A DNA stretch of 60,370 nt, the filler included, from Hausera hauseri (lineage: Eukaryota): assembly GCA_046269625.1 (NCBI GenBank). It is 11 parts of 11 records of this genome, joined end to end, with 100 filler letters (N's around TTAATTAATTAA, not from the genome) between each part and the next. Parts side by side here need not be neighbours in the genome. Positions count along the whole stretch, not along the records: positions 28,649 to 34,135 come from JBJURY010244292.1; 10 more parts are not named here. One strand, written 5' to 3'. Under the pieces are notes generated by a model. The model was not told where the DNA came from. It saw only the letters and a program-made list of their open reading frames with translations, and searched no databases. The position numbers and the translations under genes are program-made. Below, in pieces: positions 19,015-57,379 of this stretch; position 1 is the stretch's first letter, and every line of letters starts with the position of its first letter.

Positions 19015-19610
19015 AATGATAGAAATAATAATCGAAACGGTCATGGCGATAAGAATTGGAATGATAATTGTGGAAGACATGATAGACGATTTAATGGAAA
19101 TAGAAATTATGAAAATAGGAATAGTAATAACGACTACAGGAATAGCCGAAATAATAACTACGCTAGAAATCAAAATACGAATAAGTAGAATACGGATAAA
19201 GGTTTTAACTATGGGAATCGTCACGAGGATAATCGAAATAATAACAATCGGCAAAATGTAGATATTACGCAAGGGTTGTCGAACCAGGTCAATAGAAGCG
19301 CAAATAGGTCCAAGTCACCTGTGAATGAAGACGATCGGTAAAGAGTCGGCAGAAATGAAAATTTAGTTTGTTTTACCTGCAGTATAGAAGAACACATTGC
19401 ACGGTCATGTCCAAACCCGCGTAGCGTTTCATTTACTGAACCTAACAAGACTAGTATGATTAAAGTGAAGAAAAACTTGGAAGCAAAGTATGGTGATCGT
19501 GGAGACACGAGTATTATTATCGACATACAAGATCTGCGGATATTTCTAGATGCTCAGCCTGCGTCATATAACTCACAGAATTTGATGGCTAAAAATACGC
19601 AAATAAATTA
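19015..19610 (+). pseudogene. gag: Gag C-terminal region: Asn/Arg-rich tract and CCHC zinc knuckle
   Basis: The frame from 19015 reads NDRNNNRNGHG... then CFTCSIEEHIARSC (19369-19410, CX2CX4HX4C), with two internal stops. It is not in the ORF track. Confidence 0.75.
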
Positions 19611-19622
19611 AGGCTATTAGAA

Positions 19623-22600
19623 GTGCATCATGGGTTAGCAGAACCAAAAACTGAATATGAGTATGCGATAGCACCCAAGCGAATTGATATGACATGGAAA
19701 AAGAGTGTTCCGACGATCGATAGAATAGCAGATAAACCAGGAACTTCGACGGAAATCGACTTAGATGCAGAGCCTGAGTTTGCGGTTGGAAAAGTAGACA
19801 TTACCGAAGATAAGGTAACAAAAAAGGAATTTATGGAGCTATTAATACTTAAAATTATTAAAAATAGAGGCCGTAACCCTTCATTGAGAACGAACCGTAA
19901 AAGTCGCTCACTTTCGCAAATACCTAAAGAGAAAATAGAAGAAACGAAAGATACGAACATCGCTGTAGAAAGCGACGTACAGCCTAGCTTAAATACACCA
20001 GAAATTGGTCCATTTACACCTATCGAGGTAAATGAATCTGTAGGGTCGGTTAACGATATTGACGAGATCTGCCCACTTTCCACTAGTGAGGAAGAAATCG
20101 AAAATATTGATGATTTTTATCCACAAAATGGAAAATCCGACGTTCGTGGGAAACGCCAATGAATTAAAGTAAATGAGAATTTGATGCCACGATCCAGGAA
20201 CACTACAGTGGAATTTAGAAAGACTTAAGAAGATTAGCGAACAAGTATATATCCGGTAAAGAGCAACCACTGGCTGCGAGGTTATATAAAAGTTTAAAAT
20301 TATGCATTGAAGGAAAGCTCGATGAAGCAATCGACTTAGGACAACCTGAAGATGTACCAACCGGAACGTTAATAAAAAGGAAACGTGAATTAGAATCATG
20401 GATTAAAAGTGAAGTCGAATTCTCGGAAGGATGGAGTAAAAGCGAAAATAGTGTTGATTTGAAAGTAGTCAAGGCTCAGACGTTATTATCTACACTAGAA
20501 ACTAATCCCAAAATTAAGACAGTAGTCCGTAATTTAGAACGCATGATGGATGATATTCAATGTGCAATGATTAATCGACTTAGGGAAAAACCTGTTAGCA
20601 ATGAAAGTGATATCGATTTAGAAATATTAGGCATAGACCCAGTAGACATTACTCCTTTAATGGAAGTGATAAAAATTGCCTTCATTGTGCCTAGGCAATA
20701 TACAAATTTAGAGTATCGTATTAAAATTAAGAAAGAAAAAAGATCACAAATTGTTAGCTTTAGAAATCGTATTATGTTCATGTATAATGAATAAACCAAA
20801 TATGTAATAAAAGCTTGTATCATAGAATTCGACGAATATAAGGATGAATTCCATTATATCAGCCGAATTATGAATTTCATAAAAGGTCCAAATGATGTAT
20901 TAAGGGATGCTTATAAAATGCTAGACAAGGCCATATTGGCAAAACCTGAAATGGCGAATCAACTGCATGAATGGTCCGAATTAGTAGCGAGAGTAAGTAA
21001 ATTAGTAGAAGACCGTAAGACAGAATTTCCAGAAAGCGAGCCTTCTATAAAGAAACAATTAGAAGAAAGTGAAAGGAACTTAGATACAATCCCAGCGGAA
21101 ATAGATATACGGACTCAATTCGAAGCATTACGACAATTGGAAGAGATATATAAAATGATCGAAGTAACAAACTTCACAGAAAAGCAGAATATGACTTGCA
21201 ATTTTCACCCAAGTTTACGGAATGTCCGCCTAGAGGAAATCCAACATTTAACAGCTAAATCTACCGACGAAATTTCCATCCAGGATATCGAAACTTTAGA
21301 TATTTGCACAGAACGTAAAACGGTTACAGAGGAAGCAATGAGATTCATACATAAACCACAGAAATGTATGACCGGAACAAATCAGAACTGTCATACCGAG
21401 TTGACAAAAATAAGAAATGACCCTCAGCTTAGTTTTGAAGAAGTTAAGTTCGTAAAGAAATTGTTCTATGTAATAGATCCCGACTCAAAAATTGTTAATG
21501 AGATGTACGAGTTAGCTTTTCTTTTAGTAGAAATGACATAAATTAGTGATGAGAAAATGAGACAATTGATGCCTCAAATACGACAGGCCGAAGAAACGTG
21601 CAGTAAAACCAAACAAAGAGCGACAATGTTAGACGAATTAATCAGAGCTCAAATTTATAGAAACAAATATGGTTTTACCGAGTCCGAAATCAAAAATAAG
21701 CGTGAATTTGTATAAATATGGAAAAGAAATGTAATTATGGAACTAACTGTTTATCACCAGAAGGGACTCATCCATCCTAATGAATTAGGTGAACTATTGA
21801 ATATGATTCAGTATGCCTATGGAAACGGAATGGGTTTCCGAACTACACAGATGAATGAAATACAACCAAGATTGAAAGAAATAAGAGAAAACGTGTGCAG
21901 ACTCAACACAATGTTGACAGACTGTGGGCTTCCAGACGTTGGAAATGAACCGGAATGGGACGCGTACTTCGATGCAATAACGGCCGAGAATCCTGTGACT
22001 CCGGTACAGCTAAATGAATTAGAAACGTGTCCCCAGGACAGTAGATTCAATGTGGAGATGCTGTTGGATCCAGCGCTAACTGAAAGGTATTTAATTGAAC
22101 TAATTATTGTGAGCACTGCCGAAAGTAAATTAAGACAACTCATTCCGACTTTGACTAAATTATCTAGTGAAAACACAATTTATAGCGCGGTGCCAAAACT
22201 TTTAATACGGAAATACGCTAAGATCGTGAGAGCTAAACCCGAAGTAACGATGAAAGTAAAAATATCATGCGAGTAAATGGATGAAAAAAAGTGAGTTAAC
22301 CACGTATTCATGCGTGAGAAATGTAAGAGAACGATTAATAAACAATGGTGGAACGAAAGAACTAAAGTATAGATTTTACTTCAGAGGTAGAATACTGGAT
22401 GATCTAGAACAGTCAATAGACATCGGGATCACCCCCAACGAAACAAATCGTATCGTGGTAATAGTATCCAATGAACAGAATAAAGAAGAAGCCACTCGTA
22501 AGGCCAAGACAAAACAATGTGTAGGACAAATGATGGGAGCCCGGGATGATGCAGTGTATTTTGAATATTTACAAACGGATGAAGACAAGGAACAATACGA

Positions 22601-23160
22601 CAAGAATTTAGTAACCCTGAGTGAAACAATAACCAATGTGCCAAGACAAAAACATTCAGTCGGCAGACCTAAGAAAACAAGAGAAGAAGCAGACTATAAA
22701 TGGAGAATTGATTAGAGAATTGATACAGATGTCGATTCCTACCTTCAGCACGGACAATGAAGAATTGAGTGAATTAATGAAGAATTTAATACGAATTGTA
22801 AATTATTCAAGCCTCCGAGGTGATACATTAGACGATAAAGAGAGGGCGATATTCAATGCAGAGAGGATGATGAGAAGTTCAAGTTTTAAATTATCAAAAA
22901 GTAACTTAACTGATGAATCAGTGATCGAAAAGATCATGGTGGAACACACCACTAAAGAATTAAGAAAAGTAGTATTGTACTGAGCTATCAAAATAAAACC
23001 CGGTTGAGAGAATGAAATTAATAGAGCTACCAGCTTAGCACGAAGAGCGGCAAGAAAGCTACCCTGCAAAGTAAATTGATAGAGACTATTCGATAAAGAA
23101 GAAGACAAACGGTCCAGAAATAGCAATCGATTCGAAGATATGCTCGTAATCTGACAATGA
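19623..23160 (+). pseudogene. Large decayed ORF(s): acidic region, helical repeats, ubiquitin-like domain (~22249-22465), AT-hook-like GRPKK (~22662)
   Basis: MKVKIS..ELTTYSCVRNVRERL...KYRFYFRGRILDDLEQSIDIGITPNETNRIVV follows the ubiquitin pattern. A homologous region is at 33222-34118. Confidence 0.6.
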
Positions 23161-23209
23161 CGCATAATATTAACCGGAAAAGCGAATCTAATTGATTAAT
23201 TAGCTTACT

Positions 23210-25616
23210 TTGATGATTCTAATAAAGCATATAAGTGCTGCTACCGTCTACGATTGCGATAAGTTTAAGCTAGGACAAAAATATTCTCTAATGGATTTAG
23301 AAGTATGTGAGGACGCCAGACCATACAAATTGGAAACAAGGAAGAAAAGTTACTTCCTATATCAACAGCAAGAATTGATATCGTTGGATGGAATGGAATG
23401 TACGTTTAGACAGTCCCGTAGCATTTTCCACTGTGGATTAATGCACGGACATTCTTCAATAATCAGGCCAATGACTCCTCTAATTCCGATGAATTTGGAA
23501 CGCCAGCATTGTAAGCAGGCCAGGGAAACCGGAAGAGTAAAAGGGGATAGCATGGAACTAGAGATGTAACCAGGGAAGATAATCAGAGCATATAAAGTAG
23601 TGGTTGGAAGGTTAGACATGCATAACGGACATTGTAATGGAGCAGAATACGACACTGGAAAGTGGTTAGAATCAAATGTATTGGTCGTAGATTTCTATGA
23701 ATCGGAGATGTACAAAAAGTAATGTTCCATAGTGTCACCAAATTATATACCGAGAATCAGAAATGCCATTTACAAGATGGAACCTGTGCCTTCAGAAGTT
23801 CTGTTATAATATAGGAACCTCCCTTGGGAAGAAACTGTAATTTTACCAAAATCAAGGAATTGAAATTTAACGAAACCACCGGAAAACGATATGTAGATAA
23901 ATCCGATACCAACTCAAGGACACGCGAGGATGTAGCAGAACACCCTACACCTACTATATTGATCGCCGACCAGCATGGACTAAAATTTATTAAGAAAGAA
24001 ATGATCTCTCGTTGCAAAGTGGTAATGTTCGCTACAAATTATGAAGCATTTTTCGTTACAGAGATTAATATAAATGCGAAAACTTACGAGCTAGAAACAC
24101 AGGACATTCGGATTGAATATTACTTGAAAAACCGAGGCGATTACTTTTATTACAAAGGACAAGTTGGAATAACCGAATTATATCACAGAATGATAATGAA
24201 TGATTGTAAATTGGATATGAAAATCATGAGAACAAAATTAGCTCTTATCTGTGCTAATCCTGAGTTAGCCTCTCCAATAATTCCTATGAGAAAAGGAATT
24301 TTCGGTCGAGTTACCGGCGAAGTCCTATTGACTTATGAATGTAAGAAAAGAGACGTACCAATCAACATTGAAAAAAAACATTGCATGTAGGAACTCCCCA
24401 TTATTTACCAGAATACTCCGCATTTAGCCACGCCGCTTACTAGAGTGTTATTAGACAATGCAACTGAACCAAAAAATTTTAAAGACTGTAAAGCAAGTTT
24501 AAGAGAACCGATTTTTAGACGTAGCGAAACAGATAGGGTTAGTTTGCCTAATGGAGGTATTACTGTCGCTCCAAATAAATTAACAAAAACAAATCTCGCA
24601 AAAGGAATTACCGACGATAAGTCTCAAGACACCTCGTCAAAAGGCATATATATGCCTAAGGAAATTGAAGCCTTCAGACAATTTCTCGCTTTTCCACGAC
24701 AGCGGACACACGAATTAAATCGAGCCATGGCCTCTGTAGTAGATGATATTCAACATCAAGCTTAGTGGGAATCATTGCTTGGCGTAAATCATTACCAACG
24801 AGTAACCACAGAAATACTCTACAAAATTTTGGGAAGATTTTTAATTTTTGGACAAGCCGCACCTGGATTCTTAGCGATATATTTTCTAATACAAATGATT
24901 AAGGCCGTCATCTAATCAGTAATAATATGGGATTTTCGTGTAAAATACTGACTGCAATCATAACACCTTTGGCAAATTCTTAAAAGCATATGAAGAGAAT
25001 AGACGGAAATCGGACATAGACCGTCATGTCGGTTACTATAATCGTAAACGAAAAGGAAAACCTATGTTTCTGTACAAGCAAAAATTCACAATACCTAATA
25101 CGCGAAGAAATAATTCAGATAATGACGAGCCTAAGGGAAGAGAAGTACTTCCGAGAACAGATAGACACAAGACGTATTCTGTCATAAAGCACCATTGCCT
25201 GTGCTACCCCTACTGCTCCAGTCTATAAAGACTGTGACAAACGATCAATGAGCTCATATCAGACAGAAATCTATAAAAGAACAATTAGTTTAGAAGACCA
25301 CTACGACGGAACGAAACGTTATGGAGTCCTACGGAAAATGTGTTATCGACAGCCCGTGGATGACCCCAGAATACTGTATCCTCCGAGAGAACCTCGGAAT
25401 ATAGAGACTAGATCGCCTGTCTGGGAAAATCCAAGGTTAGAAACCTTCCGGAATATAGAACCACACACAAACAATCGAAAACCATTAATTAGTATACATG
25501 AAACTGAAGAATTGAAGATCGAAAATAATGAATTATATCCAAACGGAGAATTAAGAATATTATCTGAAAACATAGTATTCTCCCCAGACATTCGAATTAA
25601 CGGACATTCGAATTAG
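23210..25616 (+). pseudogene. env: Chuvirus/herpes gB-like (class III) envelope glycoprotein, plus tail and linker leading toward the deleted protease
   Basis: Signal-like segment, then VYDC...YSLMDLEVC, SIFHCG, RVTGEVLLTYECKK, C..ELPIIY, GIY, and TM region KILGRFLIFGQAAPGFLAIYFLIQMIKAVI. Confidence 0.85.
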
Positions 25617-25786
25617 CACTATCATTAATTGCTTCTTACATTCCAAGGACACAAACTCAATGGTGAGACGACGAAACTATGCTAGGAGATGTATATGGAA
25701 TTCGGAAGAGGGAATAAAAGCCGAAAGTTATTAAAAAGGGAAAAGAAACCAACGGCCGAAGAGATCCAGAAACGAAAAGATACTAT

Positions 25787-26989
25787 TTGTTACAATCAAT
25801 GAAGGTTCATTACTTTTCGCCCGACTCTGAGTGTGTTGGATTTAAAACTTGGAGACCGCATCACGATTTCGCAAGATTTCAAGTTGTACTATGCAATGTG
25901 ACAACAAAAGAAGTAAAAAATTGCGATTTTGAACCCGGAGATTATACCCAGTGTTGCGACATAGATTTTGGATACATTTACATCCTTATTTATCGACTAT
26001 ACTTACCAGACTCATCAGAAGTCTATATCGAAGTAAACCCACAACTTCAGTTGGTCATTCCCACTTGTCCTAGACGATTCGAAGTGAAACCCGAAGAAAT
26101 GCAACAATTCACTGACTCAAATATAAGGCTATTATATGAAAACATGAAAAGGATCTCAGTAAATCAAGGAAAACAATGCATCCAAGTAGATGCTCGAAAA
26201 GGATTAACTTTTAGTCAAGAAATTATTATTGTTTTCGAAGCAGTAAACTGAAAAACTCCAAACATAAAATACTGTTCTGTTCATGCTGGTGTGCAACACC
26301 CATGTAAACCAAGAATTAAAATAAAGTTTGATCTATATGAAGTACGACCGAATGAACCGAGCAAACATTTGTGAACCTATTACCTGAAGAATAGAAAATG
26401 GAAGATTCAAATAGAAACGACAACCGAAAAGCCAACTACTTGAGTTTGTGCCATTACGAGACCCGTTATATCAAACAATGTGCCTAAAAGAGATTTAGAA
26501 AGTATACCTATTAAATATTCAACACATCGATTTAGAATTGTGTTCTTTGTAGAAGAAAAACTAAATTACAATATACACATAAGCTGCCGAACAACGCGTA
26601 ATAATCAAATTGTAACACTACTTAAATACACTTACCAGACAGAATGCAATTTGTTAAAATCACAATCTGATTACATAGTACAAGTATATGCAGCGAATAA
26701 ACAAAACCGAACAATTATATTGCCTACCTTAGACGAAATTCGTGCAGGATCGCATATATACGAAAACATAGACGAGGAAATCACAACTCCAATCACAACA
26801 CAGGCACCAATGGGATTAACCACTTTACCGATCGTATCGATTGTCGTACTATCGACGTTTGTTCTCATTATATTAATTGCGATTTTTCGGTTAGTTGTCA
26901 AAAATTGTCATTCTAAACGTCCTAAAACTACAGAATGGAAACTAGGGAAATTGGAAACCCCTATTGATCAGTATGATAAAATAACCTGA
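25787..26989 (+). pseudogene. Type I membrane protein with fibronectin-III-like ectodomain
   Basis: ORFs 25787 and 26480 share a frame. LKSQSDYIVQVYAAN is an FN3-like strand motif, followed by a Thr-rich stalk, TM IVSIVVLSTFVLIILIAIF and a short basic tail. Confidence 0.6.
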
Positions 26990-27062
26990 CAACTACAGAG
27001 CAGATTATTCTATCATCTGACAAAGAATTTGTTTCATTTTAAGACCATCCTTTGTTGTAAGA

Positions 27063-27094
27063 TTAACCCTTACTGTTTATTTTTTAGACTGATG
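27063..27094 (+). promoter_or_regulatory. Candidate 3' splice acceptor just before the ATG of the accessory ORF
   Basis: ttaac (branch-like), pyrimidine tract, then tttttag (AG at 27086-27087); ATG at 27092. Confidence 0.4.
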
Positions 27095-28548
27095 AGTAAA
27101 GGGAAAGTTATGAAAACGGATACCGGACAGCCTAGGATCGACGGACCGCGATCTATCCTAGAGCGAGAACAATGTAGTATCGTGAAATAGTTAAAACGCC
27201 GACTTAGTATCGACGAGTTCCTGCAGAATTATGCTACCGTTTTCCTTCCCACTTCCAAATCGATATATCGAGAAATTCAGAACGAATTGCATGAGAAAAC
27301 CTTCGTGAAGTATGATCAAACCAGTAAAATTCCTAACAATTTAAAGGGTACAACGGAAGAAAATATGATTGTTTACCTTTACGCCATGAGAAAAGACAAG
27401 GTTGCCCGAGCATACTCACTGAAACAGATGATCACGTACGAATTACATCAGAATATTTATATCTACCTGGAAGGTGGTTAGATATACTATCGGTTCAAAG
27501 ACCAAGAATCGAACACAAACAACGGAACACAATACAGATTTAGTACCCTTAGCTTACGGAGCGAAGATTTACAGCATTATGAACTAGAATTCCGAGTAGC
27601 CGCCCTTCCCTTGAATATAATGTTCGAGGTAACGTACGACGATTACCCCTATATCAAACTGCCACCCTTGAAATTTCATCAGCAGCCGTCAAGCAAGGAC
27701 TTGGACGCATTCTTACAATCTTATAGACTAGTGCAAGACGCCAGAAATACGAGAATCATAGCAATCAATTGCGGAGAAGAAGATGACGCGAAAAGAATTC
27801 CAATGGAAGTTTCAATTCGAGAAACGAACGGAACGGAAGTATAATGTACGATTATTAGCCAGAGAAAACTCGTTCTTGAGACATACTACGATACGACAGC
27901 AATTCGCAAGGAAACACTCTCGAAAGGTAGAGACATCAAACTTGTCCAAGTTGAGTTGGAACAATGTTTACACGGATATATCCTAGTTGGATATAGCATC
28001 GATAAGATTGTCGAACTCTTGGAGATACAGATTTCAAGCATCGTAAGAATGCGGGAAATAGGGACACTTCCAATAGTTGCCGAACAAACTAAGCTGACAT
28101 TGCGAAAAAGAGGTTACTCTATGCCAAAGGTTATGGATGAATACTTCAAGATAATGGTTGATGGTATGAACAGTAAACATGTTAAAATTAACAAATTGTT
28201 GACCGAAAGCCAGCGTACTTAATACTTGCGTGACATTTATGTAACTTTAAAATGGGACCATGAATGGATACCTGATAAACCAGAACAAAATTTGCGAAGT
28301 TCCTCGGAACCAGAAAGTATAAACAAAAGTTATCGAAAACAGTACCGTCAATATTCCCCATGTAGAATCGTTGAACCTATAGGACAGGATGATATAAAGA
28401 TAACCATTAGGAAATCCGATCAACCATGTGTCAATATGCCCAACACCAGTTATGGTTCCCACGTCAAACCAATTCCAGAAATGAACTGTACAATAGACGC
28501 AATAGATACATTTAAAATGCCCCAAATTTCAGTGAAAAAGCAGAAAGC
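27092..28548 (+). pseudogene. Accessory ORF with a DEDDh (REX4/ISG20-like) exonuclease-fold domain
   Basis: ORFs 27287, 27611, 27956 and 28226 are all in frame with ATG 27092. IIAINCG..PMEVSIRETNGTEV..T.ISQR...YDTT.I...VQVELEQCLHGYILVGYSI...MREI follows the REX4 pattern. Confidence 0.6.
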
Positions 28549-28739
28549 NNNNNNNNNNNNNNNNNNNNNNNNNNNNNNNNNNNNNNNNNNNNTTAATTAA
28601 TTAANNNNNNNNNNNNNNNNNNNNNNNNNNNNNNNNNNNNNNNNNNNNCTGGCGATTCAAACAAAGAAGAAGCTGGGTCAGAATTGATATGCGTAATCTA
28701 ACGAACCCGTTAGATACGGACAACCTCAGCTGACGATTA

Positions 28740-30170
28740 ATGTCAGGGATTGCAGCATACTCAACCCTAATTAAAAAGATAACCAAACAACAGCGGGTTA
28801 CCTTGAACTCCAGAGATAATAGTAGCGAAACCACAACGATTACCTCCATAAGTTGTCTGATAACCGTTGTGTTGTGTTTAAGCATAGTGATAAATGACGT
28901 ATTGACTTTCATTTTTGCAGCCTCAGCAGAAACTTTCCATCAGATTCAGACAATCAGTCGATCCAAACAATGGTACAGTAATGTGAAAAACCATATAATA
29001 AATGCCAATTAATCCAACCAATACCATGTGTTTCACAAAGACTATATGATCAGCCTTAATTACCCCCAGACTCAGAATATTCCAAATAATTTGAAAAGAT
29101 ATAGTATGGCTAACCAATCCCTCGGCGTAATGCAGATTACCAAGGCCACCTCATTTCTTTTAACCGACATAATAATTCTGCTAGACCGATTCCATTCCAT
29201 GAACCTGTATGGTATTGTTTACCAACTCCAAGTAAAAACGACAGACAGAAAAACATCTTTTAGAGGAGATTTAATCAATTTTGATCCGGAGCATGGTCTT
29301 GCTTTTGACCACTCATTTCTTAAAAACAATATATGCAAAGTACGTTCCTGCACTAATGGCGTAATACTGGCATTAGAAATAATCAAAAACGAAAAGTTTT
29401 ACTCAAGCCTTCTAGAAGGAAGATGTTTTAACCTTCCAGAGCTGGATTACGTCAAATATAAAAACATTCCTTTCCGGAGATTGGATAAAATTACAGATAA
29501 AGATATGGTCATAGCAGCCGTCAATTTGGCCTATGACCAGTGGAATCAGCTTCAACCTATTGAAGCCTTAGTTATGGCCCTGAATGGAGACACCCTACTT
29601 TATGGAATAATTACTCCGAGGCAGCGTATTAATAACTTTGATACGCATATAACAGGCCTCACCGAATCTAACATAAACAACCAAATGGATCCAATGGATT
29701 TTTACCGAAAAGCGGCCGAAGGTATAACTGACAAGATTGTAATCGGAGCCGACGTGATTGAAATGGTTATAAACCATTTCAAGTGTCCAATCGGACGGAT
29801 AGCTGGAGTTAGCGATATTTTATATCACGAGAATGTTATCCGTTGGTATCAATTAGCAACCAACACCTATAAAGAGTTAGCTCGGAGGTTTTATGATACG
29901 AAGGGCTTCTCTCTTCAAAGCACTGCCCTAGCTCAGCGTTATTAGTCGATGTACAATCAAATGAAATGGACAGACGAGTACATTACTCAGAGTTTGACCT
30001 CCGATACGGTGCGAACAGCACCAAAGGCGTCTCAATGTGAAAGGAAGCGAGAAGTCCAGTTGGACGAAACAGTCATATTGGACGATGAAATCTACAAACC
30101 CGAGGCAATTCGACATAAATCCAGAACAACGGACAAGTATATCCACATGCCTTTAGTGCTCGATCAATGA
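28740..30170 (+). pseudogene. Divergent homolog of the DEDDh-fold accessory ORF
   Basis: One frame with two stops. YPQTQNIPNNLK matches YDQTSKIPNNLK. MALNGDTLLYGIITPRQRINNFDTHITGLTESNI, KIVIG and VSDI follow the DEDDh fold. Confidence 0.65.
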
Positions 30171-30680
30171 TAAATTCGGGGCAATTTCTTTCAACCCCTG
30201 TCGAATTGTTAAAGACTTTGAATAGACCTCCGGTAATGCTTGACTTTTTTTTCCGGGTACTACTATCTCTGATTGTGGGGGTATTATAATATCTTTTGTC
30301 AGTGAGACCTTTTCTCTGCATCGATCTTCATCAAATGTCTTTAACTGACTTGTTCTTACGTCTATGTATGCGTTTTCTAATTGGTTTAATACATCACACC
30401 CAATTAAGATTTCATTAGTCAAATTGTCGGCTATGCTTATAGTGCGTTGCAGAGTTTGTTTGCCGATTTTAATTTTTGCGTCCAGAACCATCTTGATTTC
30501 TTCTTCTGTACCGAACGCTCCTACGTTTATTAATGTAGTAGTCAGTCTTCATAACTTCCTTTTCAACTCTTTGGGTAATTGACTTCTTCCCATTATTGTT
30601 GTTGTAGATCCAGTGTCTAATAAAGCCGTCATAGGGTATCCATTTACCTCTATTTCTATTTCTGGCCTTATAGGTGATTG
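30153..30680 (-). pseudogene. pol: Retropepsin aspartic protease and start of the following spacer; pol truncated
   Basis: IRPEIEIEVNGYPMTALLDTGSTTTI, ILIGCDVL, IIIPPQSEIVV. Confidence 0.9.
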
Positions 30681-32917
30681 TTCGCGTTTTTTATCATCAG
30701 TTCTGCACGTCGACTCACGCTGATAAGGTCTTACATCTTCCTCAAAATTTTGTTGCATCTGGTGTACTTGATGCATTGGGTATAATCCTGTATGTACCAC
30801 ATATCGTGGAGCTGAAGGATTTACTAAAAGTTGCTCGTTATATAGTTGCCTATGATATTTATCTACGGGATCTAGATGGGGTAAATCCATCACGAGCTTA
30901 TGCCTATATTTAGGCTTTCGTGTCTTCAACACTAGTTGTTTAATGCCAGGTACTTGTTTGTATTTCGTTTTTATCTTCACTTGATCATAGTTGGTATTAT
31001 CATTGTCAGGTATACTATACAGAGATTCTTTCGTGTCTCTCTTTTGTAATGTCTTTTTCTTCCATCGTGTATCATGCTTTGCTAGAAAACAGCTTGCTAC
31101 GACCGGTATTACAGCTATTAAGATCTTCCAGGGGCATTCTACTGCTGCGTGTATCCCATATGCTTTACCTAATGCCGTAAATACTGTCCGAATGGAGCTA
31201 ATAATAAAATATATAGCTAGAAAATCAGAAGCTGCTTGTCCGCAATATAGGAACTTTCCCCATATCTTTTCCATAACGTTTTTTGTTACCTTCTTTAGGT
31301 AATCATTACCTATAGGGTTCTCCCATTGTGGTGATCCTTCACCGTCTCACATTACTCTCCGTGTTAGGTCGGTTGTTACTCGTTGTCTTTGTTGCTGGAA
31401 CAACAGCATCCGTCGATAGTCGTCTAAATTTTGTTGGGTATAATTCCTCCCTGTGATATTCTTGTTAATGGTTCGAACTTCTGATTCCTTTGTAAGTTAA
31501 TCAAACTCAATGTCTCCGGTTTGGACACTGGTTCTCTTTTCGGCATTCTTATCGATTTATCGTTATCAATCTTGAACATCGGTGGCATATTAAAAGTACA
31601 GTTGTATAATGGAGTGGGCTTTACATTAATATCTAGCAATATTCTCGTCACTGGCATAACATATCGGGCTTCTGAGTGATAAACGACAGGTAGTTCCATT
31701 GCACATTTGTCTGTTGGTCTAATTGATACTTCCACCTTTTTACATTCTATTGTTATCAACACGTCGCCCATCACTCTTCCAATAACTCCGTCGCCGAAGG
31801 GCAATACTGGCGCTACCATATCTGGGTTTGTTATCACCAATGCCATTTTACTACGAATTATTTCATAGTTCTGCTTACATTCGTTCATTATTATTTCCCG
31901 ATATAAACCCGTAATTTCTTTCCTTACGTAATTAATCAGAAAATCGATCTTATTATTGAAATATTGTGTTAACTTGATATCTTTTTTATCTATTTTAGTT
32001 TTTGCTCCGAGTATTTCTTTCCTCGATAAGAAAATACCTTTATAGTTGGTTCTCGATATTTCTTCACTGCACTTGTTTACTATTCCGGTGATTTTGAATC
32101 GCGTCATTTCTTCTGGGTTTTCTGAATATACAATTGTGGCCACTTCCGTCATCTTGACTTTCTTTGTTCCTTCTTTATATGTCGCTGTCTCTTTTTCCGC
32201 TATTTTTTCTACCGTTTTGTTAAACTTCCCTTTCTTTAACAGTGTCAACTGGCATTTACTTGCTAGAGTCTCCTATGTCATTTTTGACTCTTCTGTATCA
32301 CATTCGCCATTATCGTATTCACAGTCACTCAGTCGTCATTAACTTTGTTTGCAAATTGAATAATCCTTCATATTCTTTTAATTGTATCTTATAATCTTCT
32401 ATAGCCACTGTTCTTGGTGCAATGGTGCCTCCGACATCATAATCCACTCCTTTACAGGTGCCTTCCATCGTTTTATCTATCCTTCCTGCCCTAAAAATCC
32501 TTGTGTACTTTATTCTGTTCCTTACTGTCGGTATGTGTGCGTTTTGTATAGTTATGATGCCGATCTTAGAAGCATCCTGACATTACGCTCGTGATATTAT
32601 TATTGGCTCAAAACGTGTTGTAGGCTCAATTATGGCCGAGTTTCCTGAATAGTAAATTAAACGGAAAAAAACGATCTTTTCACATAACATTCCCTAATTT
32701 TCGTTTTTATGAATTCAGATTCTTGGTACACCAAATGTGTAAGACCACTAGTAGTTGTTAACTGTTCTGGATCAGCTTCTGGGCATTTTTCTAAGTCAAC
32801 TGGAGAATACTTTTGTCCTTTACTGGGTTTAGAACAATCATGCGCCACTATACCTACGGCTTTCTGCATCAGCAATGATGTTATTCATAGAATTTTAAGA
32901 ATCTCCATTACCGACAT
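30681..32917 (-). pseudogene. env: Chuvirus/gB-like envelope glycoprotein copy 2; TM and tail are in the same ORF as the protease
   Basis: MSVMEILKIL.ITSLLMQKAVGIVAHDC, RVMGDVLITIECKKVEV, CAMELPVVY, KIWGKFLYCGQAASDFLAIYFII. ORF 30549-31274 runs from the TM to DTGS without a stop. Confidence 0.87.
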
Positions 32918-32929
32918 GTCTGTTATGCC

Positions 32930-34135
32930 TTATCTAGAAGTGATTGGTTGTGTCCCAACTGGTTTATCTATTACTCTTTCTTGTTCTTCTGTCCTGGTTA
33001 TGTTAGTCGTCAAGATATTCAGCCATCCACCCCTACATTGAGCCTAATTTCCCAGCGTATCTTTCAAAATCTTCACGACTATCTTTATGTATCGTTCAAT
33101 TTCGTGTAAATTTTGGGTCTGATGATTAATTACTATTATCTTATATAGCAAATAAGATATAGCCGTTTGAGCTTTCTCTCAAATAATTCCTGTTTACGAA
33201 TATCTTTTCCAAAATATCCAACTAATGTAATTTATTTACTCGTTCTTCCTCTAAATTCTCATAAAATTGTCTACTTATTCGCAGCATGCTATTTCGTAAT
33301 GTAGTGAATACTTTATCTGGAATTATTACTTGCATGTCAAATGAGGCAAATGATGTATGTAGCTTAGCCAATAACGTTCTTAGTAAGGGATCTGCGTTTA
33401 CCGCTTCGGGGGTATCGTTTGGTCCTGCTAGTAATAAACGTCTTACTATTTCGTCATTTCTATTTTTCCTGTTGCGAATGTCACTTATTGTCGTTCCTCT
33501 CGGCCTACCTGTTCTCGTGGCTTCCGTCTGAACCGTGACGTCTTGTGTATCACCCGTATCCTGCGGTTCAATTTCTCTTACGACATTTTCCACTGTTGCT
33601 TGTGCTCTTGCTTCTGGATATACTTCAGTTATATTTACCGGATTATAGTTCTCACTTCTGCATCAAATTCTCAGCAATTTGCCGTAACTATATAGTGTCC
33701 TTCCGCAATAACTTAATTCATAAAGACTGCCTTGATAAAATGGTTCCAGCTCCTCTATCTTTTCTCGTAAGGTTTGTATGTCACAGGTTTCGTTCATCCT
33801 GATGACCCTCATATCTTGATTTCCTTCTCTCATCGTTATCCTGATAGCTTTATTTCTTCTTTTTTTTTCTTCAGCAGCTTTGGCTAACACAGTTCTGGCT
33901 ATTTCTCTCACAGGACTGATAACTTGGGCTAATAATACCAACTGAGGTAAAATTTCATTCATTCTTTCTACCGTTACATTACTGCTGAATATCTTCAATA
34001 TCGTAGTAGTTGTTTTATCTACATTAACTGTATTATTACTATCAATGGACATTACAGCTTGTATAACATCATCTTCTTCATCTAAGTCTACACCGGGATT
34101 CTTTATTACTTGGTCCAATATCGTGGCATCGAAAA
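32930..34135 (-). pseudogene. Pre-env ORF with ubiquitin-like domain and AT-hook-like GRPRG
   Basis: IRITMREGNQDMRVIRMNETCDIQTLREKIEEL....LYELSYCGRTL..YGKL, then RTGRPRG. Same order as in copy 1. Confidence 0.6.
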
Positions 34136-38553: not shown

Positions 38554-41480
38554 ACGCGGTAGTTTTTAATCGTTTGATTTCGAAGATTTTAGAAATTTTG
38601 TCAAATAACTCACTCGTAAAATTTCTTCCTCTATCGATTAATATGTGATCGGGCGGTCTATATCTGCAGATGATTTTCCTCACTACTGCTTCTGCTAGAG
38701 TTTCCACCTTTTGATCAATTAGTGCGATTAATTCCACAAAGTGTGTTAAACGATCTACAAATGTCAAAATATATTTATTATTTTTATGAGTTGTAGGTAA
38801 AGGTCCTACTATATCCATATACATAGCTTGCATAGGTCTGTCTGGTACGTCGATCGGTTTTAATTCTGCTATATAGTTTTTTACTTTTCTTTGTTTTGTT
38901 GCACAGACTTCACAAGCGTCCGCCCAATTTTTTACATCGATATAAACGCTTGGCCAGTAGTACTTATTCAATATTCTTTCTAACGTTTTCTTTCACGACA
39001 TATGTCTAGCTAAATGTGAATCGCGTTCAGTCATTAATACTTCCGTTCGTAATCCCTTTGGAATAACTACCAGTTTCCGTCCCTTCCGTTCATAAGATAA
39101 TATATTATCTTGATTCGATGTATATTTGTGCCCGTGTCTCTGTACGTGTTTCTTTAGCTGACGTCCTTTCGGTATTTCATCTTGCTCGGCAAATTTGACT
39201 ATTTGTTGGACAACTTTATCTTTAGCTTGTTCTGAAGCAACCTTGATCGTCTTATTTGGTGTTAAGGTTTGTTGTCACTCGACTAATTCTTGAAGCTGAG
39301 CCTTCTTCATGGTCGTATTTGTGCTTGTTTTTGTTTTAAGTCTTGATAAAGCGTTTGCGCCTACACGTTTACTTCCGGGTTTATATTGAAGTTTGATATT
39401 GTATCGCGAAATTTCCTCAATCCATCGATTTAGTCTACATGTCGGATTATTAACCAAGCCCTTTAGCGTGGTAACAGCCTTATGGTCGGTAGCTATAATA
39501 ATTTTCTGCCCATAAACGTAAATGTTGAAATGCCTTAAGGCTTCTTTTACAGCTAGCGTTTCTAGTTCAGTTACTGAATAATTTTTCTCGGCCTTCTTGA
39601 ACGCCCATCCTCCATATGCAATCGGGTGCTGCAATTCTTCGTCTTCTCGTTTTTGGGCCAATTCGTAACCAATTCCTTCTTTACCAGCCTCTGTTTTAAT
39701 TTTGAATGGTAAGTTGAAATCGGGGTATTTTAACACTGGTTCACCTGTTAGAATTTTCTTCATTTCATCGAACGCCTTCTGTTCTATATCGGTCCATTTC
39801 CATTTGATAACTTTTTTCAATAGCCGATATAATGGCCCATTTATTTTCGAGTTGTCTGGTAAGTAAGTGGCATAATACCCACATAAGCCTAACCAATGCC
39901 TTAGTTCTTTCTGATTCTGGGGTTCCATACAATCCAATATTTTGCTTAATAAAGATTTATCTGGTTTTGACCCTCCTTCTCCGACTATATGTCCCAGATA
40001 AGATACAGCGTTTTGTGCCCATTTACATTTTTTCGCATATAGTTTCAACTCTGCCTGTTCCAACCGCATGAGAGTGTCTTTGATGTCCTTTAGGTGTTCC
40101 TCTTTTGTTCTTGATGCTATCATTACATCGTCTAAATACGCGAACGCATGATCGAGTCCCATTAGCATTTTATTCATCATTCTTGTGAAAATAGCTGGGC
40201 CGGTTGTTATACCAAACGGCATGACGTTAAATTCGTAAACTCCGTCGTGTGTCTTGAATGCCGTTTTATAACGGTCATCCTCTTCAATTTCTACCTACCA
40301 ATATACTGATTGCAAATTTAATGTGGTAAACCACTTTGCTTCTGATAATCAGTCTAAAACTTCTTTTACTGACCGTAGTGGAAACGAGTCTTTCATCATC
40401 TGCGTGTTCAGAGCTCTGTAATCTATACAGAAGCGATGTTTTGTGGTACCCTTTTTCTTGACTATGAGTAGTAGTGAGTACGAAGACAGATAGCTTGGTC
40501 GTATTATATCACCCTTTAACATATGTTCAACCTCTGTAGTTATTTCGGGCCTTAATAAATGGAGCGATGGGTACCATTTAGGCATCTTTTGCTTTTCCAA
40601 GTCAATTTCGTCATTAGAGCCAGGTTTCTCTGCCTATATCTTCTTCATTTTTGGCGATAATCGAATTATATTTGCATAATAATTTGTAAAATTGACAATA
40701 TACTTCTGGTGAAAATTTTTTCTCAACATAAGATGGAAACTCGGCACATTTATAAGGTTTTTCGTCGATTGTTATTCCCGATACTTTGTAAGTATGACCC
40801 AGTGTAGTGTTGACATACAACTTTAAGGAAGTTGGTGCATTATTAACTAATCTGACTGGTACTCTTCCTGTCGTTACTCTTGTTAAAATGTTACTGAGTA
40901 TAATGTTTGAGTAAACGTCTTCTTGTGGCTCAAAATATGCTGGCTGATCGTTTTCTTCTCGGATCTGGACATAAATTAGGATTTCGGTTCTGGGTGGAAT
41001 AGTTTCATCGAACGGGATCTACACTTCTCCTAGTTTCCTTTCTTTCATTGTTTTAATTCCTTTCACTGGTCCGAGTTCGAGTAGTTTTTCATTCTGTAAG
41101 TTTATTACAGTATTGGGAAACTGTTTCAGTATATCGCAACCTAACACTACATCGCCGGTTAGTTGATCCATTATAGTAAACTCGTGTTGTCGCGTTTGAC
41201 CTATTAATTGGACTAGGGGGCTCCATTTAAATGTCAGTTTGGATTCTTGCCCGAAGGCTCCTATGCTGCTTGAATCCGATGGCGATGCTGGCTGCAGTTG
41301 TTTTCGTAACGTCGGCGGTATTGATTCTAATTTTACAAACGATTTCTCTGATCCGGTGTCGATTAAGGCATAGACTTCCCAAGCTTCGATGTAATTTTCG
41401 TGAAGGGTCTCCCTTCCATAACTGTTCCGTAACAACTTGACACGTCTTTTGGTCGTTTAATTGAAGAAATTTTATGTCCG
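38554..41480 (-). pseudogene. pol: Ty3/Gypsy pol (protease - RT - RNase H - integrase)
   Basis: ALIDTGS, RFCIDYRALN, MPFGITTGPAIF, AYLDD, PIAYG...AEKNYSVTELE, TDHK, YYWP..CEVC, MDIVGPLP, DRGRNFTS. Confidence 0.96.
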
Positions 41481-43439
41481 CTTATCGTTATTTCTGGTGA
41501 TGAAATGATGTTCTCGGTCAACTGTTTCAGTTCTTCGTTAGGGTAAAAGTCGTTGATTGCTATGCGACCTGCATTGTTTCTAATTAATGGTTCTTGTATT
41601 ATTTGGTTTTGGTGCGATTTTATTCCTTATGTTCCCCAAACTGTTGATCTTGTCTCTATATTACGAGCTATTCTTGGCGAATACAATATCCTATGGTTAT
41701 CTTCCGCTCGTCGTTGATTAGTAATCTGCATTTTCTTCAATACTCCGTATTGTTTTGTTCCTTCATAAGGGTCCTCATAGCTAAAAGGTCTTAGACAGAA
41801 ATCCCATTTGTGTAACACCATAGATGTTCTTTCACAATCTTCGTATATTGGGGCCATTGGCAGCATGATGGGCAAGGGTACCTTGACTACTGAATACATT
41901 TTATGTCTATTTTATTTTAGGTTTGTTTCTCCTGCCTTAGGCTCGTCATCATCGGAGTCATTTCTTCGTGTTACTAATTTCTTAATTTTACGTTTTAATA
42001 GAAATGTGGGTCTTGCTAGTCGTTTATAATTATAATAGCCGACTAAGCTTTCAACGTCATTTTTCCATCGGTTTTTTTCGCATGCTTTAAGCATTTTGCC
42101 GAACGGTGTCATGATTGTGGTTAAGATTTTTCATGGAAATCCTGTTAACGTGAATATTTCGTAGCCATTTATAACCGCTGGGATTACCGCTTTTACTAGT
42201 TGTTCCAAGAAATAGATGGCTAAAAATCCAGATGCGGCTTGTCCAAAAATTAAAAATCTTCCCCATATTTTGTAGAGTATTTCGGTAGTTACCCGTTGGT
42301 AATGGTTTGCACCCAACAGGGATTCACATTTAGCCTGGTAGCGGGTGTCACCTACTACTGATGGCATAGCTCGGTTTAATTCGTGTGTTCGCTGCCGAGG
42401 AAAAGCGAGAAATTGCTGAAAGGCTTCGATTTCTTTGGGCCTGTAAATACCTTTTTGGGATGTATCTTGAAACTTGTCATCCGCAATTCCTTTTGCTAAA
42501 TCAGTTCCAGTTAGTTTTCTGGGAATGATAGTGATACCTCCATTGGGTAAGCTAATCCATTCCGTAAGCTATTCCATTCCGTTGCAGCTCTTTATAATTG
42601 TGGGCTGAGTCGCATTATCCAACAACACTCTGGTGAGGGGCATAGCTAGACGTGGAGTATTCTGGTAAATTACAGGGAGTTCATGCATACATCGTTTCTC
42701 TTCGACGTTGATTGGCACATCTCTTTTCTCGCATTCATATGTGAGTAGAACCTCGCCAGTAATTCGATAAAAAATTCCTTCTCTCATAGAAATAATTGGT
42801 GAGGCTAACTCAGGATTCGCATAAATAAGAGATAATTTTGTCCCCATAATTTCCGTATCCAGTTGGCAATCGTTAGTTATTATTTTGTGGTATAGTTCGG
42901 CTATTCTGACTTGTCCTTTATAACAGAAATAATCGTATCGGTTTTTCAGATAATCTTCGATTCGAATGTCTTGCGTTTATCTCAGTTTCTGCGACGAAGA
43001 AGGCTTTATAGTTAGTGGTGAACATTACTACTTCACAACATGAAATGATTTCTTTTTTTATGAATTTCAATCCGCGTTGATCAGAGATTAATATCGTAGG
43101 TGTATCATGCTCTGATACGTTTTCACGTGCTCTTGAACTGATGTCGGATTTGTTTACGTATTGTTTCCCGGCAGCTTCATTAAATTTTAATTCCTTAATC
43201 TTAATAAAATTACAGCCTTTTCCAGCAGGCGGTTCCCATATGACGACAGAACTTCTAAAGGCACAGGTTTAATCCTGTATATGACATTTTTGGTTCTCGG
43301 TATATAGTTTAGTGACGCTATGGAACATCACTTTCTGGATTTGCATTTTCGATTCGTAAAAGTCTACTACCACTATGTTTGCTTCCAGTCATTTTCCAGT
43401 GTCGTATTCTGCTCCACTGCAATGCCCTTTATTCATATC
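41481..43439 (-). pseudogene. env: Chuvirus/gB-like envelope copy 3 (5'-truncated by contig end) with tail and linker, directly upstream of pol
   Basis: ANPELASPII, RITGEVLLTYECEKRDVP, KIWGRFLIFGQAASGFLAIYFL. ORFs 42847, 42367, 42112 and 41899 share one frame. Confidence 0.88.
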
Positions 43440-45079: not shown

Positions 45080-48000
45080 TTTCATTACTGTCAAATACAA
45101 TCTAAACAAATCGTACGTGGATATGAAAGTAAACATGTCAGGGACAACAACACCACAGCTGAGGCATGTTCCGTCCAGTGTATGCAGCCGGTTGGAATTA
45201 GAGGTGGAGAAATTCAAACGCAACAACTAAAAAGTGAAATATTGTGCACATGCAGAATTTCATAACCTTGAAGGTGACAGGAAACAATGGTACCTGTCAC
45301 ATCGAGCCGTACCGTATTCGAAAGATTTTATTGCCGATGTAAGCGAAAAATTGGATGAGAAAATCGCCAACTATACAGAAAAGGGTAGTGAATGGCGAAT
45401 TATACGAATTGTCACACTTGGCTTTATCATAACAAAGTTGAGTGACGTAGTGTATTTGTCTGGACGATCATTCATACCGACACCTGCATCTCTAAAGCAG
45501 TCACTGGCGGTAGTGAATGTACAAAATACTGACGACGAATATTGTTTTCTGTACAGTATTCTGGCTGTATTGAAGTACAGCAAAGTAAACAGATATCATG
45601 CAAATCGTCCAAATCAGCATCGGCAGTATTTTTCCGAATTGCAATTTGATGAATGCTGGATGCCGATAAAAATAAAACCATTCTGGCTTTTGAACGGCGT
45701 AATCCGACGTTGTCAATCAATGTCTTCTGGTACAACACAATGATTGAAATACCAAAAAACCAAGAAATTTATAAGAACCCCCATGTTGACATAATTTATC
45801 GCAGTTGGAATCCAAATGGACACTGGGTAAATTTGCTGCTGTTGGAGCAGGCCGTGACAAATCTGGATAGCCTGTTGAACATGGAACATGATCAGTTTAT
45901 CAAAAAGCGAATACGATGCAAATGGTGTCCTGTATGTCTGCATGGATTCAGATGGAAAACAACACGAGAGAAACAAGTCACGCTATGGAGGCAAAACGCA
46001 TCAGGAACAACAATGTACGCCATGCCTGTCAAAAAGGAGCTCAGATTCAGTAATCGGCCTAAAACGGACAGTACGGAATATGTGGTGTATGCCGATATCG
46101 AAGCAATTCTACCACGGTACAGTGTATACGATCAGAATCACGTTCAATTGCCGTCGGTATGTTGCTAGTACCAATAAAAACCGCCAGACAACCGCAGTAT
46201 TACGTTTTCCATGTTTGGAACTGTATACGTGATTTCATGCAGCAATTGGAAACCATAGTGGAAACGGAAATCGCGCGTGGCATCGCAACAATTGCAATAA
46301 GCCATTGATTTGGACAGACGAATATCAACCGTTGCTTTTCGTTTTCACCGATGAATGCTATCTGTGCCACAAAACAATACCGTTTGATGCACAGAAACGG
46401 CTCGTACGGAATCACGACCATTTCATTAGTTGATACTTGGGAGCAGCATAAAATTCATGAAATTTAGCAAGGTGAGTGTGACCATTCCTGACGGTGATCT
46501 TTCATAATTTCCGAGGTTATAACTGTCACAATATTCTCAAATGGGCAATTAACGGCTTTCCGCCCTGGGAATTGTCCATAATTTCAACGACAATGGAAAA
46601 ATACCTATCGCTGTCTGCTGGAGTAAACCGATTCCAGGTACGCTTCCTTGATTTATTGAAATTTCTTAATGAATCTTTGGCAAAGCTAGTAAATGCCTTG
46701 CCAGATGTGCCAATAGCACTGACGCAGATCCATGCACATATTGCACGCAGCAAAGGCATATTTCCATATGACTTTGCAACATCATATAAGCGAATCCAGA
46801 CAGCAAATGAATTATCGCCGCGATGGACAGGTATCGTAGAAGATGAATATAGGATAGTACAAGAATCTAGGACAAAACTGGGCTGTAGAAACATGGTGAT
46901 TTACATGCTCTAGTGTCTTAAAAAGGACGTGTACTTATTAGCCAACGTGTTCGCAGCATTTTGGATCAAAGCGCTGGCGGAAACTAGGTTGGAGCCACTC
47001 AACTTTTATTCCATACCGGGAATGAGTTGGGCGTCAGCTCTAATGTCGCTGGATCGAGATATTGAGCTGCTGCAAGACCCGGAAATGTACCTAATGTTTG
47101 GTGTTGGAATTCGCGGTGGCATGACATTTGTCAACAAGCATTATGTCAGTGCTACCGATATCACATCACTGCTGTATATTAATATTAATAACCTGTATGG
47201 CTGGTCGCTTTCGCAACCCTTGCCGTATAGTTCGACAGAGAAGATCTGGACGACATAATGGTCAACCTACTACAAGCAGACATTGCAGGCTCAGTCGGAT
47301 ACCTGATGGAGGTCGATCTCGTGGTACTAGATGAGCTGCATGACGTTTTGGACGACTTACCGGTTGCACCATTTAACCAATGTCCGCCAAGCTGAAAAGT
47401 GAAGAAACTGATCATGACGCATGAACAGAAGCTGAATTACGTGGTCCATTGGCGTCTGCTACACTTCTAAATGCAGCTTGGTGTACGCATAACACAGCTG
47501 CATCGTGCAATTTGATTTGCTCGGGCTCCCATATTCAAAGCGTACATAGATGGAAAATCAAAGAAACGAGCCGCAGTTTGTACAAGGTTCGAAAAGGACT
47601 ACTACAAGCTGAAAAACAATTCAATGTACGGGAAAACAGAGGAAAATATGGAAAAGCGACTCAATGTTCGCCTATGTAACTAGGAAAAGCGGCTGGTTAC
47701 GTATACCAGCAAAGCACAGTTTCGGCGGTCAATGCACATTGCCGATGGATTGGTTGGGGTGCTGGTAAACAGGAAAGACCGGCCAAGTTACATCGGACAA
47801 GTGGTATTGCACCTGGGCAAGTTGCGGATGTATGAGCTGCAGTATCGCAACTTGGCACGTTACCGGCACATGTTTGATGGCTGCAATACTGATACAATTG
47901 CCGGTAACACAGATAGTTTTTTCCTGCGGCAGAAAAACGTCAATCGCGAACAGCTACTGCAGCAAATGCAGATTACTGGACACGACCAACTACACACCGG

Positions 48001-48229
48001 ATCACACTTTGTACAGCAGTGCGATCACCAGTAAAATCGGCTGCTTCAAGGATGAAAGTGAAGGTCGTGTCCGGTATCGGGAATGGATATTCCTACGCTC
48101 AAAGTGCTACAGTCGTCTGACGGACTGTGGAAAGTAAATGCGGGAAAAACGAGTCCAGCTGAGACAGGCAGAAATCGGCCACGGTGATTATCGCGGTATA
48201 TATGAAGCAGCAACAGCAGCGGCAGCAGT

Positions 48230-51699: not shown

Positions 51700-52275
51700 G
51701 GTTTGTAAAACATAAACAAACTTCAAACTTGACTTGATGATAATGATGATTTTCGACGATGATTTTCACCGACTTACAATCGTCTGATCGTGAGGCAGCT
51801 ATAATATGAAAGGGACAACTATCGATGGGCTATGTACTCAATCCATTTCCACAACCGCCTGACTTGTGCAAGGAAAAATTTGGCCGTTTGAAATTTTCCC
51901 ATCGGCTTTTCACCATGTTCCCATGGTCCAACAACGTTGCAGCTGTATCCACTGCAATCGCCAATATCGATTTAACCCTTGTACACTGAGTGATAGCAAC
52001 ATGTTTCCCGTTATACGTGACATATTTCCTGTTTTGTTTCTTCCTCTTCTAGCGCCTCTCCCTTACATTTTAGTTACACCCCACCTATATTAACTTTTTT
52101 TCACCTCGTCACGCGCTATCGATATCACTTGGTCCAAAGTCCATTGCTCGATCTCCTTTTCGGCCACGGAGTCCTGCGAAATTTTTAGTCAAATGATCGG
52201 AATAACCAATCAAGTGGGAAAAGTGGTTTTCAGACCAATCAGAAAAGTGGGGTAGAGAGCTCACTTCTACCTACT
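51700..52275 (-). mobile_element. Polinton terminal repeat ending at 52275 (AGTAGGTAGAAGTGAG on the minus strand)
   Basis: Follows the capsid and protease genes. Homology with 17421 onward ends exactly at the AGT. Confidence 0.78.
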
Positions 52276-57362: not shown

Positions 57363-57379
57363 TAACTCTGCCAGATTCC

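Follow-up and report, generated by a model that had tools for sequence, protein, structure and literature searches.

In the planarian giant gypsy-like element Burro/GYPSM1, env lies in frame between gag and pol within one open reading frame, or ORF (Arkhipova and Yushenova 2019, PMC6431247, where Grohme 2018 and Jurka 2007 are cited for Burro / GYPSM1). As described there, the ORF encodes Gag with CCHC knuckles, ubiquitin-like and BCL2-like domains, an env related to mononegavirus glycoproteins, protease (PR), a spacer, reverse transcriptase (RT), RNase H (RH) and integrase (IN); the ubiquitin/SUMO-like and then the BCL2-like domain stand between gag and env, and a dUTPase-like domain between PR and RT. 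A decayed arrangement of this kind is found in 60,370 nucleotides of DNA, filler included, from Hausera hauseri (GCA_046269625.1). This window, the whole stretch that was analysed, consists of 11 contigs joined by N spacers, and three separate contigs carry env-bearing copies, numbered 1, 2 and 3. Copy 2, on the contig at 28649-34135 (JBJURY010244292.1), holds the junction between env and PR. With a probability of about 0.75, it is a decayed copy of a Burro-like Ty3/gypsy element in which env is in frame with PR in a single Gag-spacer-Env-PR-RT-RNase H-IN chain, likely threaded through the endoplasmic reticulum (ER) so that the enzymes would stay in the cytosol on the Env tail until released by PR.

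The same gene order is known from GAG-ENV-POL 'ancient errantiviruses', which have an HSV/gB-type ENV and occur in Nematoda, Bryozoa and Platyhelminthes (Chary and Hayashi, eLife 2026, PMC13524379). These share with the present element the class III env and Ty3/gypsy pol as well as the order, and in env domain I-II the six Schmidtea elements of that paper are closer to the relatives described below, by eye and not by computation, than are its Bryozoa, Branchiopoda and Cnidaria rows; on these elements its text gives the ORF order, with no word of one frame or of processing. In mosquito BEL/Pao elements with a chuvirus-like glycoprotein (PMC13524379), the same glycoprotein family has been captured by a long terminal repeat (LTR) element, and Cer1 is a single-ORF element without a true env (PMC10309623). 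The BEL/Pao arrangement is not matched here, where pol is of Ty3/gypsy type and env precedes PR. In BEL/Pao elements env follows the integrase. The NERVs of Sacco et al. 2022 reportedly form a monophyletic, nematode-restricted clade with a continuous gag-env-pro-pol ORF and an RNA-virus-type glycoprotein.

Burro was compared by description only, and membership in the strict sense is likely. The feature held in common is the in-frame env-PR of copy 2 together with the whole single ORF of its relatives, one of which, P0065, is a 4,844 aa protein with ankyrin repeats, as against the 4,873 aa of Burro ORF1, also with ankyrin repeats (PMC6431247). The MATH and BIR domains and 25-30 kb size of Burro were not seen in the contigs of the window copies, which are 5-10 kb, and ankyrin was seen only in P0065. 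The element is one that works like Burro and the GAG-ENV-POL errantiviruses, all those features of the latter that could be tested being present. The novelty of layout that the sequence-only reading of this DNA had implied is unsupported: Burro has already been described with an in-frame env (PMC6431247), and three phyla with this gene order (PMC13524379); with the layout already known, copy 2 alone adds little.

The junction is a minus-strand ORF (30549..31346) that continues from the end of env through a tail into the PR active site. Its frame, 31346-30552, comprises 265 codons and closes at a stop at 30549-30551; residues 12-120 match the C-terminal end of PF24664, Monjiviricetes_fusion (E 1e-10), and residues 227-260 match the RVP protease (E 6.8e-6), both in Pfam. 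Between the end of env and that of the ORF lie 183 codons, in which this frame has no stops versus 20 and 18 in the others, and the chance of 183 stop-free codons at this base composition is ~1.4e-6. These counts, with PF24664 and RVP in one frame, confirm the in-frame env-protease fusion, env upstream of pol, that had been proposed. Protease homology runs on in the same frame past the stop at 30549-30551, to ~30258 (tblastn against relatives), and this stop therefore truncates the protease just past its active site. At the upstream stop that delimits the ORF, related contigs differ at a depth of 27,995/28,311 (run X1), a near-total disagreement that marks it as private decay of copy 2.

All parts of copy 2 lie on the minus strand. 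Env, of class III (chuvirus/gB-type), runs from its signal sequence to the membrane region (31000..32915; PF24664 E 2.8e-34 and tblastn pieces) and is broken by frame changes near 32,660, 32,330 and 31,440 and by several stops. It includes a first hydrophobic stretch (31167..31253), the predicted Env membrane anchor and the strongest such segment in intact relatives, and a second (31077..31133), which, by hydropathy in the relatives, likely lies along the cytosolic membrane face without crossing; both sit where they had been located before. A basic, variable and probably cytosolic tail or linker of ~135 residues follows (30669..31076, from reading the sequence), and then the aspartic protease and start of the PR-RT spacer (30156..30668, by Pfam and homology to relatives), with the one stop at 30549-30551. 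Homology to pol ends at ~30,160-30,240. That the tail might be a short Gag, as in the ENV-GAG-POL order of mites, was rejected: it has no CCHC knuckle, and gag lies upstream in copy 1 and in the intact relative L002.

The family is present in many copies, with 14,448 (run X1) and 1,550 (run X2) contigs aligning on the copy-2 contig, none of the pieces listed being long enough to span the element. Across the junction, at 30560-31200, 1,713 (X1) and 179 (X2) contigs were aligned, copies less than 80% alike being left out; coverage drops shortly ahead of the protease, where the similarity of copies falls under 80%. No indel at a 40% share was found across this interval among the aligned contigs. 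Of 77 differences 40 were displayed, 19 of them synonymous, 21 missense and none nonsense, and 19 synonymous changes were reached in 9/2,000 simulations; the other frames gave 6 and 13 synonymous changes, and the frame with 13 has 4 new stops. The multi-copy check that had been proposed for the junction thus yields no common indel, and no stop among 40/77 differences. A conserved stop or frameshift between env and PR, which would count against the fusion, is absent from L001, L002 and the intact polyproteins.

Relatives were gathered with a HMMER query consisting of the junction with X at its two stops. This found 61 proteins, and Pfam was run on 29 together with 5/6 further cluster members; word-based protein searches gave no longer homologues, and scans of viral and prokaryote contigs gave no relatives. 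By Pfam, P0001, P0003, P0063 and P0065 each hold env, PR, RT, RNase H and IN in a single chain; P0014 has env-PR-RT-RH, and P0010 (Retrotrans_gag) and P0002 have Gag-env-PR. The env C-terminal region is present in 42/69 stored proteins, and 20 of these extend at least 119 residues beyond the anchor. Among these 20, a protease motif occurs in the same chain in 18 (15 clusters at 90%), 7 of which also have RT. The two exceptions, P0031 and P0043, fall in a separate virus-type glycoprotein clade (98/98); all three window copies share the other clade with the fused proteins (20 rows, 98/98). The tails, 119-379 residues long across relatives, have no shared sequence. It is supported by these sequences that in-frame env-PR is the family's normal state and not a product of decay.

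At the DNA level, four metagenome loci (L001-L004) were confirmed from 43 pattern matches. In L002 (97-11205) a single frame of 3,703 codons encodes two CCHC knuckles, spacer, env, two PR domains, RT, RNase H, IN and a C-terminal membrane protein; L001 (2-10279) has a single frame of 3,426 codons. L003 ends within env and reads gag-spacer and env in the same frame, with a single stop separating the two; L004, a distant locus, is unfused. The statement that Pol is attached to Env rather than to Gag fails on this point, for Gag sits upstream of Env in the same ORF of L002 and P0010, and the predicted primary product is Gag-Env-Pol, not an Env-Pol apart from Gag. In the window the order is seen in pieces, gag-env in copy 1, env-PR in copy 2 and env-PR-RT-IN in copy 3, and in full in L002. 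The contigs of copies 2 and 3 end before gag; CCHC is seen in copy 1, and gag in L002 and P0010, and a profile search gave no capsid match in the window. No self-repeat flanks the copies or occurs in L001-L004, contigs that are shorter than the element, so no LTRs are seen there.

PF24664 matches all three copies; the model of P0016 (mean pLDDT 72.7) matches chuvirus G (E 1.5e-41) and HSV gB (E 1.7e-13), and the Atlas features are consistent with a class III fusion protein, which env, as modelled, is. Copy 3 and the intact relatives have the PR-RT-RNase H-IN order of Ty3/gypsy (Metaviridae), the copy-2 contig keeping PR only, and Ty3 Gag-Pol is the closest solved Pol to the family profile. Several relatives (P0002, P0006, P0065 and P0001) have tandem protease-like domains, with 2 to 7 active-site motifs per chain, some of them after the integrase. 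P0003, an animal-type retroelement polyprotein, is filed at NCBI under a bacterial metagenome-assembled genome, likely through contamination.

Copies 1, 2 and 3 had been taken as copies of one element. Copy 2 is on a separate contig, like the others. By blastn it matches neither copy 1 nor copy 3, its env is ~30-37% identical to theirs and its tail cannot be aligned; by sequence comparison it is of a different family, and the grouping of all three as one is ruled out. The copy-3 contig (38554-43439) carries on its minus strand the C-terminal part of env with tail and linker (41396..43439; Pfam and frame count), in one frame from 42,568 down, followed by PR, spacer, RT, RNase H and integrase (38555..41410; Pfam RVP, RVT_1, RT_RNaseH, Integrase_H2C2, rve), the pol part being 37-40% identical to intact polyproteins. 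The env-tail-linker frame contains 3 stops in 268 codons versus 25 and 26 in the other frames, and breaks at ~41,390, inside the first protease strand. The shared frame described earlier for copy 3 therefore holds for the end of env, the tail and the linker together up to the first PR strand, the 3 stops having been overlooked. A programmed shift at the break was rejected: the break is inside the protease domain, no slippery heptamer is visible by eye, and intact relatives are unshifted.

Copy 1 (19015-28548, plus strand) consists of gag, spacer, env, tail, a membrane protein of the post-integrase type and a further ORF; a piece of this ORF is found again at 8170-8944 (86% DNA identity). A CCHC knuckle of Gag, found by motif at 19369, opens a segment that includes the long spacer (19369..23150), within which a ubiquitin-like piece at 22380-22473 is weakly indicated (profile E 0.003; Pfam ubiquitin E 0.1). 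Env and tail (23204..25616; PF24664, 71% DNA identity to copy 3) end at a stop, and next to them lies a predicted type I membrane protein (25718..26989) like the post-integrase one of intact relatives. It is the best window hit of the relatives' profile (E 3.6e-4), the match by hhalign being weak, with a probability of only 4.6% (E 0.009). The position of such a protein right after the env tail suggests that pol was lost from copy 1, which, judged by its sequence, looks like a pol-less derivative.

Membrane topology was deduced from hydropathy (KD19, and KD15 with a threshold of 2.1) and from basic residues. Hessa scale values entered the hydropathy step. The first stretch reaches KD19 ~1.8-2.5 in intact relatives, against 0.7-1.7 for the second; the second lies above KD15 2.1 in 0/5 relatives examined, and that of copy 3 carries lysines. 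The P0016 model has one helix, 667-719, at the anchor, and its C-terminus lacks the second stretch, on which it says nothing. P0068, P0063 and P0003 have exactly four strong segments, namely env signal, env anchor, post-IN signal and post-IN anchor; P0069 has the env anchor and the post-IN pair, plus an additional signal/anchor pair located between proteases, its env signal scoring below the threshold. Behind the last anchor there are 6-7 K/R in P0068, P0069, P0063 and P0065, and 4 in P0003. With 4-7 basic residues there, the C-terminus, and hence IN, is likely cytosolic; a cytosolic IN together with parity leaves only one crossing after the env ectodomain. Pol probably lies in the cytosol, attached to Env once the signal has been cleaved. 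The uncertainty of topology that the second stretch had raised is in this way largely resolved to one crossing by hydropathy of the relatives and the copy-3 lysines, except that the second stretch of copy 2 itself scores 2.0.

A second predicted type I membrane protein follows the integrase in the same ORF in L001, L002, P0001, P0003, P0023, P0063 and P0065. It is made up of a signal, a cysteine-containing ectodomain, an anchor and a basic tail, and in P0069 a further module of this type lies between two proteases. The post-integrase protein matches no Pfam family.

The preferred reading implies an ordered series of events. Gag and spacer would be made in the cytosol, after which an internal signal sequence is predicted to direct the ectodomain into the ER lumen; transfer would be halted by the first hydrophobic stretch, with the second on the cytosolic face. 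PR-RT-RH-IN would then be cytosolic, and a further signal/anchor pair would produce the second membrane protein after IN. By analogy, host signal peptidase would cut ahead of the ectodomain, so that Gag-spacer would remain with the signal helix and Pol with Env, as in the signal-peptidase logic of alphavirus and flavivirus polyproteins. The weakest step is that Env trimers at the budding membrane would concentrate PR and bring about its dimerisation, RT and IN being freed beside Gag; Pol would enter particles through Env and not as Gag-Pol, and the tandem protease motifs of several relatives, 2-7 per chain, would aid dimerisation. Attachment of Pol to a membrane glycoprotein, as first suggested, may thus stand, the link after the signal-peptidase cut being the cytosolic tail of Env; the words 'rather than to Gag' do not. 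In a fuller scheme, of flavivirus style, two type I membrane proteins (class III Env and post-IN glycoprotein) would flank Pol, which would form a cytosolic loop; packaging would go through the Env tail and not through Gag-Pol, and Env trimers, in some families with the help of as many as seven tandem protease motifs, would activate Pol by bringing protease domains together. This scheme is tentative, its odds being somewhat below even.

Several observations weigh against a single fused and cytosolically oriented chain. At the junction, 37/77 differences were not displayed and copies less than 80% alike fall outside the comparison. The HMMER query contained the protease, which favours fused matches, and 22/42 env-bearing proteins end too early to tell; P0033 and P0017, in the fused clade, stop 95 and 50 residues beyond the anchor, and in the L004 ORF, of the same clade, the tail lacks a protease. 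The copy-3 RT is on a long branch and joins the fused set at only 84/89. Gag and RT are absent from the copy-2 contig, and no protease motif occurs anywhere on the copy-1 contig, a lack that the sequence-only reading had missed. As to topology, P0065 has five strong segments, an odd number, at KD15 2.1, and in copy 2 the first stretch scores KD19 1.7 versus 2.0 for the second. Finally, one ORF means Gag, Env and Pol at 1:1:1, which needs some fix for Gag excess, and an in-frame stop, hinting at decay or at a switch before env, stands right before the env signal in one of the three loci that cover this boundary (L003:3058-3060).

These last two points bear on the best surviving alternative, which is nevertheless unlikely: that Gag is made separately from Env-Pol, in excess, by means of a read-through stop, a splice or an internal start before the env signal, which corresponds to the sequence-only reading. 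Such a switch would solve the stoichiometry, and the L003 stop is directly where it would be expected; stops are present at this point in copy 1 as well, a copy in heavy decay. Against this, the base after the L003 stop differs from the leaky context, and the boundary is free of stops in L001, L002, P0002, P0003, P0006, P0010, P0013, P0016, P0017 and P0063. Burro ORF1, too, is described as continuous (PMC6431247). A little less probable again is that env is spliced out of a gag-pol message, the working Pol being an ordinary Gag-Pol and the continuous frame serving Env only. Single-ORF Cer1 does splice for an accessory protein (PMC10309623), yet Env needs no open frame into PR, and the frame is kept across unlike tails; the excess of synonymous change at the copy-2 junction likewise argues against splicing as the explanation. 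Joints seen among the related contigs are weak and were left out of account.

It is improbable that the second stretch makes a second crossing, which would leave the first protease luminal, there to cut Env or lie idle. The copy-2 score, the basic residues after the second stretch in many relatives and the spare protease domains in several would agree with this, but the stretch is weak in relatives and bears lysines in copy 3, the one-protease relatives P0003 and P0014 have no segment to return RT to the cytosol, and the positive-inside polarity of the post-IN anchor requires a cytosolic IN; were the first stretch membrane-proximal and the second the anchor, the net would still be one crossing. 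That the open frame arose accidentally in decay or assembly, through a lost stop or a chimera of env-bearing and pol-bearing sequence, has very little chance of being right: the copies are decayed, the copy-2 contig is rearranged ~400 bases further on and copy 1 env ends with a stop, but the same layout recurs in copy 3, of another family, and in 15 independent protein clusters, related contigs cover the junction continuously with no common indel, and L001, L002 and the intact polyproteins largely refute it.

For the single Gag-Env-Pol chain, the intact relatives give a concrete topology, with signal/anchor pairs, cytosolic Pol, a post-IN membrane protein and tandem proteases, and make the question of threading, cutting and packaging testable. 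If true, Pol riding on Env would be a third way to load reverse transcriptase into particles, the other two being Gag-Pol fusion and the separate Pol of foamy viruses. Such a topology was not found in what PMC6431247 and PMC13524379 say of these elements, and section 7 of the former mentions neither topology, tandem proteases nor the post-IN membrane protein. In the literature searched, most subscription journals being outside it, no study of processing or topology of such chains came up, and PMC13524379 was the only paper listed for gag-env-pol-type polyprotein wording.

The flanks of copy 2 hold candidate, weakly matched segments of a Burro-type spacer, all on the minus strand. Directly before the env signal is a candidate BCL2-like segment (33007..33166), the best window hit of the relatives' profile, though weak (E 0.019) and with no Pfam Bcl-2 match in that piece; P0016 has a Pfam Bcl-2 match at E 0.00096, below the cut-off. 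A candidate ubiquitin-like segment of the Gag-Env spacer (33749..33845) is the second-best profile hit and weaker still (E 0.77), relatives giving Pfam ubiquitin matches at E 0.018 and 0.0047. The relatives' profiles place their best window hits, weak as they are, at the positions that a Burro-type spacer predicts. Beyond, the contig ends at 34135, before gag. On the other side, a spacer homologous to the PR-RT spacer of relatives is present, to which no Pfam family is assigned; the dUTPase-like domain of Burro would sit there.

At ~30,150-30,180 the copy-2 contig switches to an oppositely oriented ORF, and RT, RNase H and IN do not follow. This ORF (28650..30173, plus strand) encodes a DEDD-exonuclease-like accessory protein (BLASTP to an L001 ORF, E 2e-12; profile E 6e-12) and is inverted relative to the copy-2 env. 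Its counterparts in L001 and L002 match RNase_T in Pfam and are located after the polyprotein in the same sense, from which it follows that copy 2 has been rearranged, with loss of RT-RH-IN. Accessory ORFs of the DEDD type have been described in LTR elements (PMC5408684). In the alignment the first acidic motif of the L001 protein is absent from the window ORF, which may be a pseudo-nuclease or decayed.

The remainder of the window is AT-rich and contains PolB fragments, a 68-base satellite and several gypsy fragments, a content that repeat-rich animal DNA would fit. Decayed fragments of protein-primed PolB (PF03175) lie at 6230-8171, 14815-17420, 45231-48137 and 51762-52275, two of them sharing 83% DNA identity, and appear to be Maverick/Polinton-like. 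An unrelated, ordinary gypsy element with the integrase at its end occupies 56402-60368 (plus strand), its RT being ~23-37% identical to that of the env-bearing family, and the whole contig at 34236-38443 is satellite, with 62 copies of the 68-base unit.

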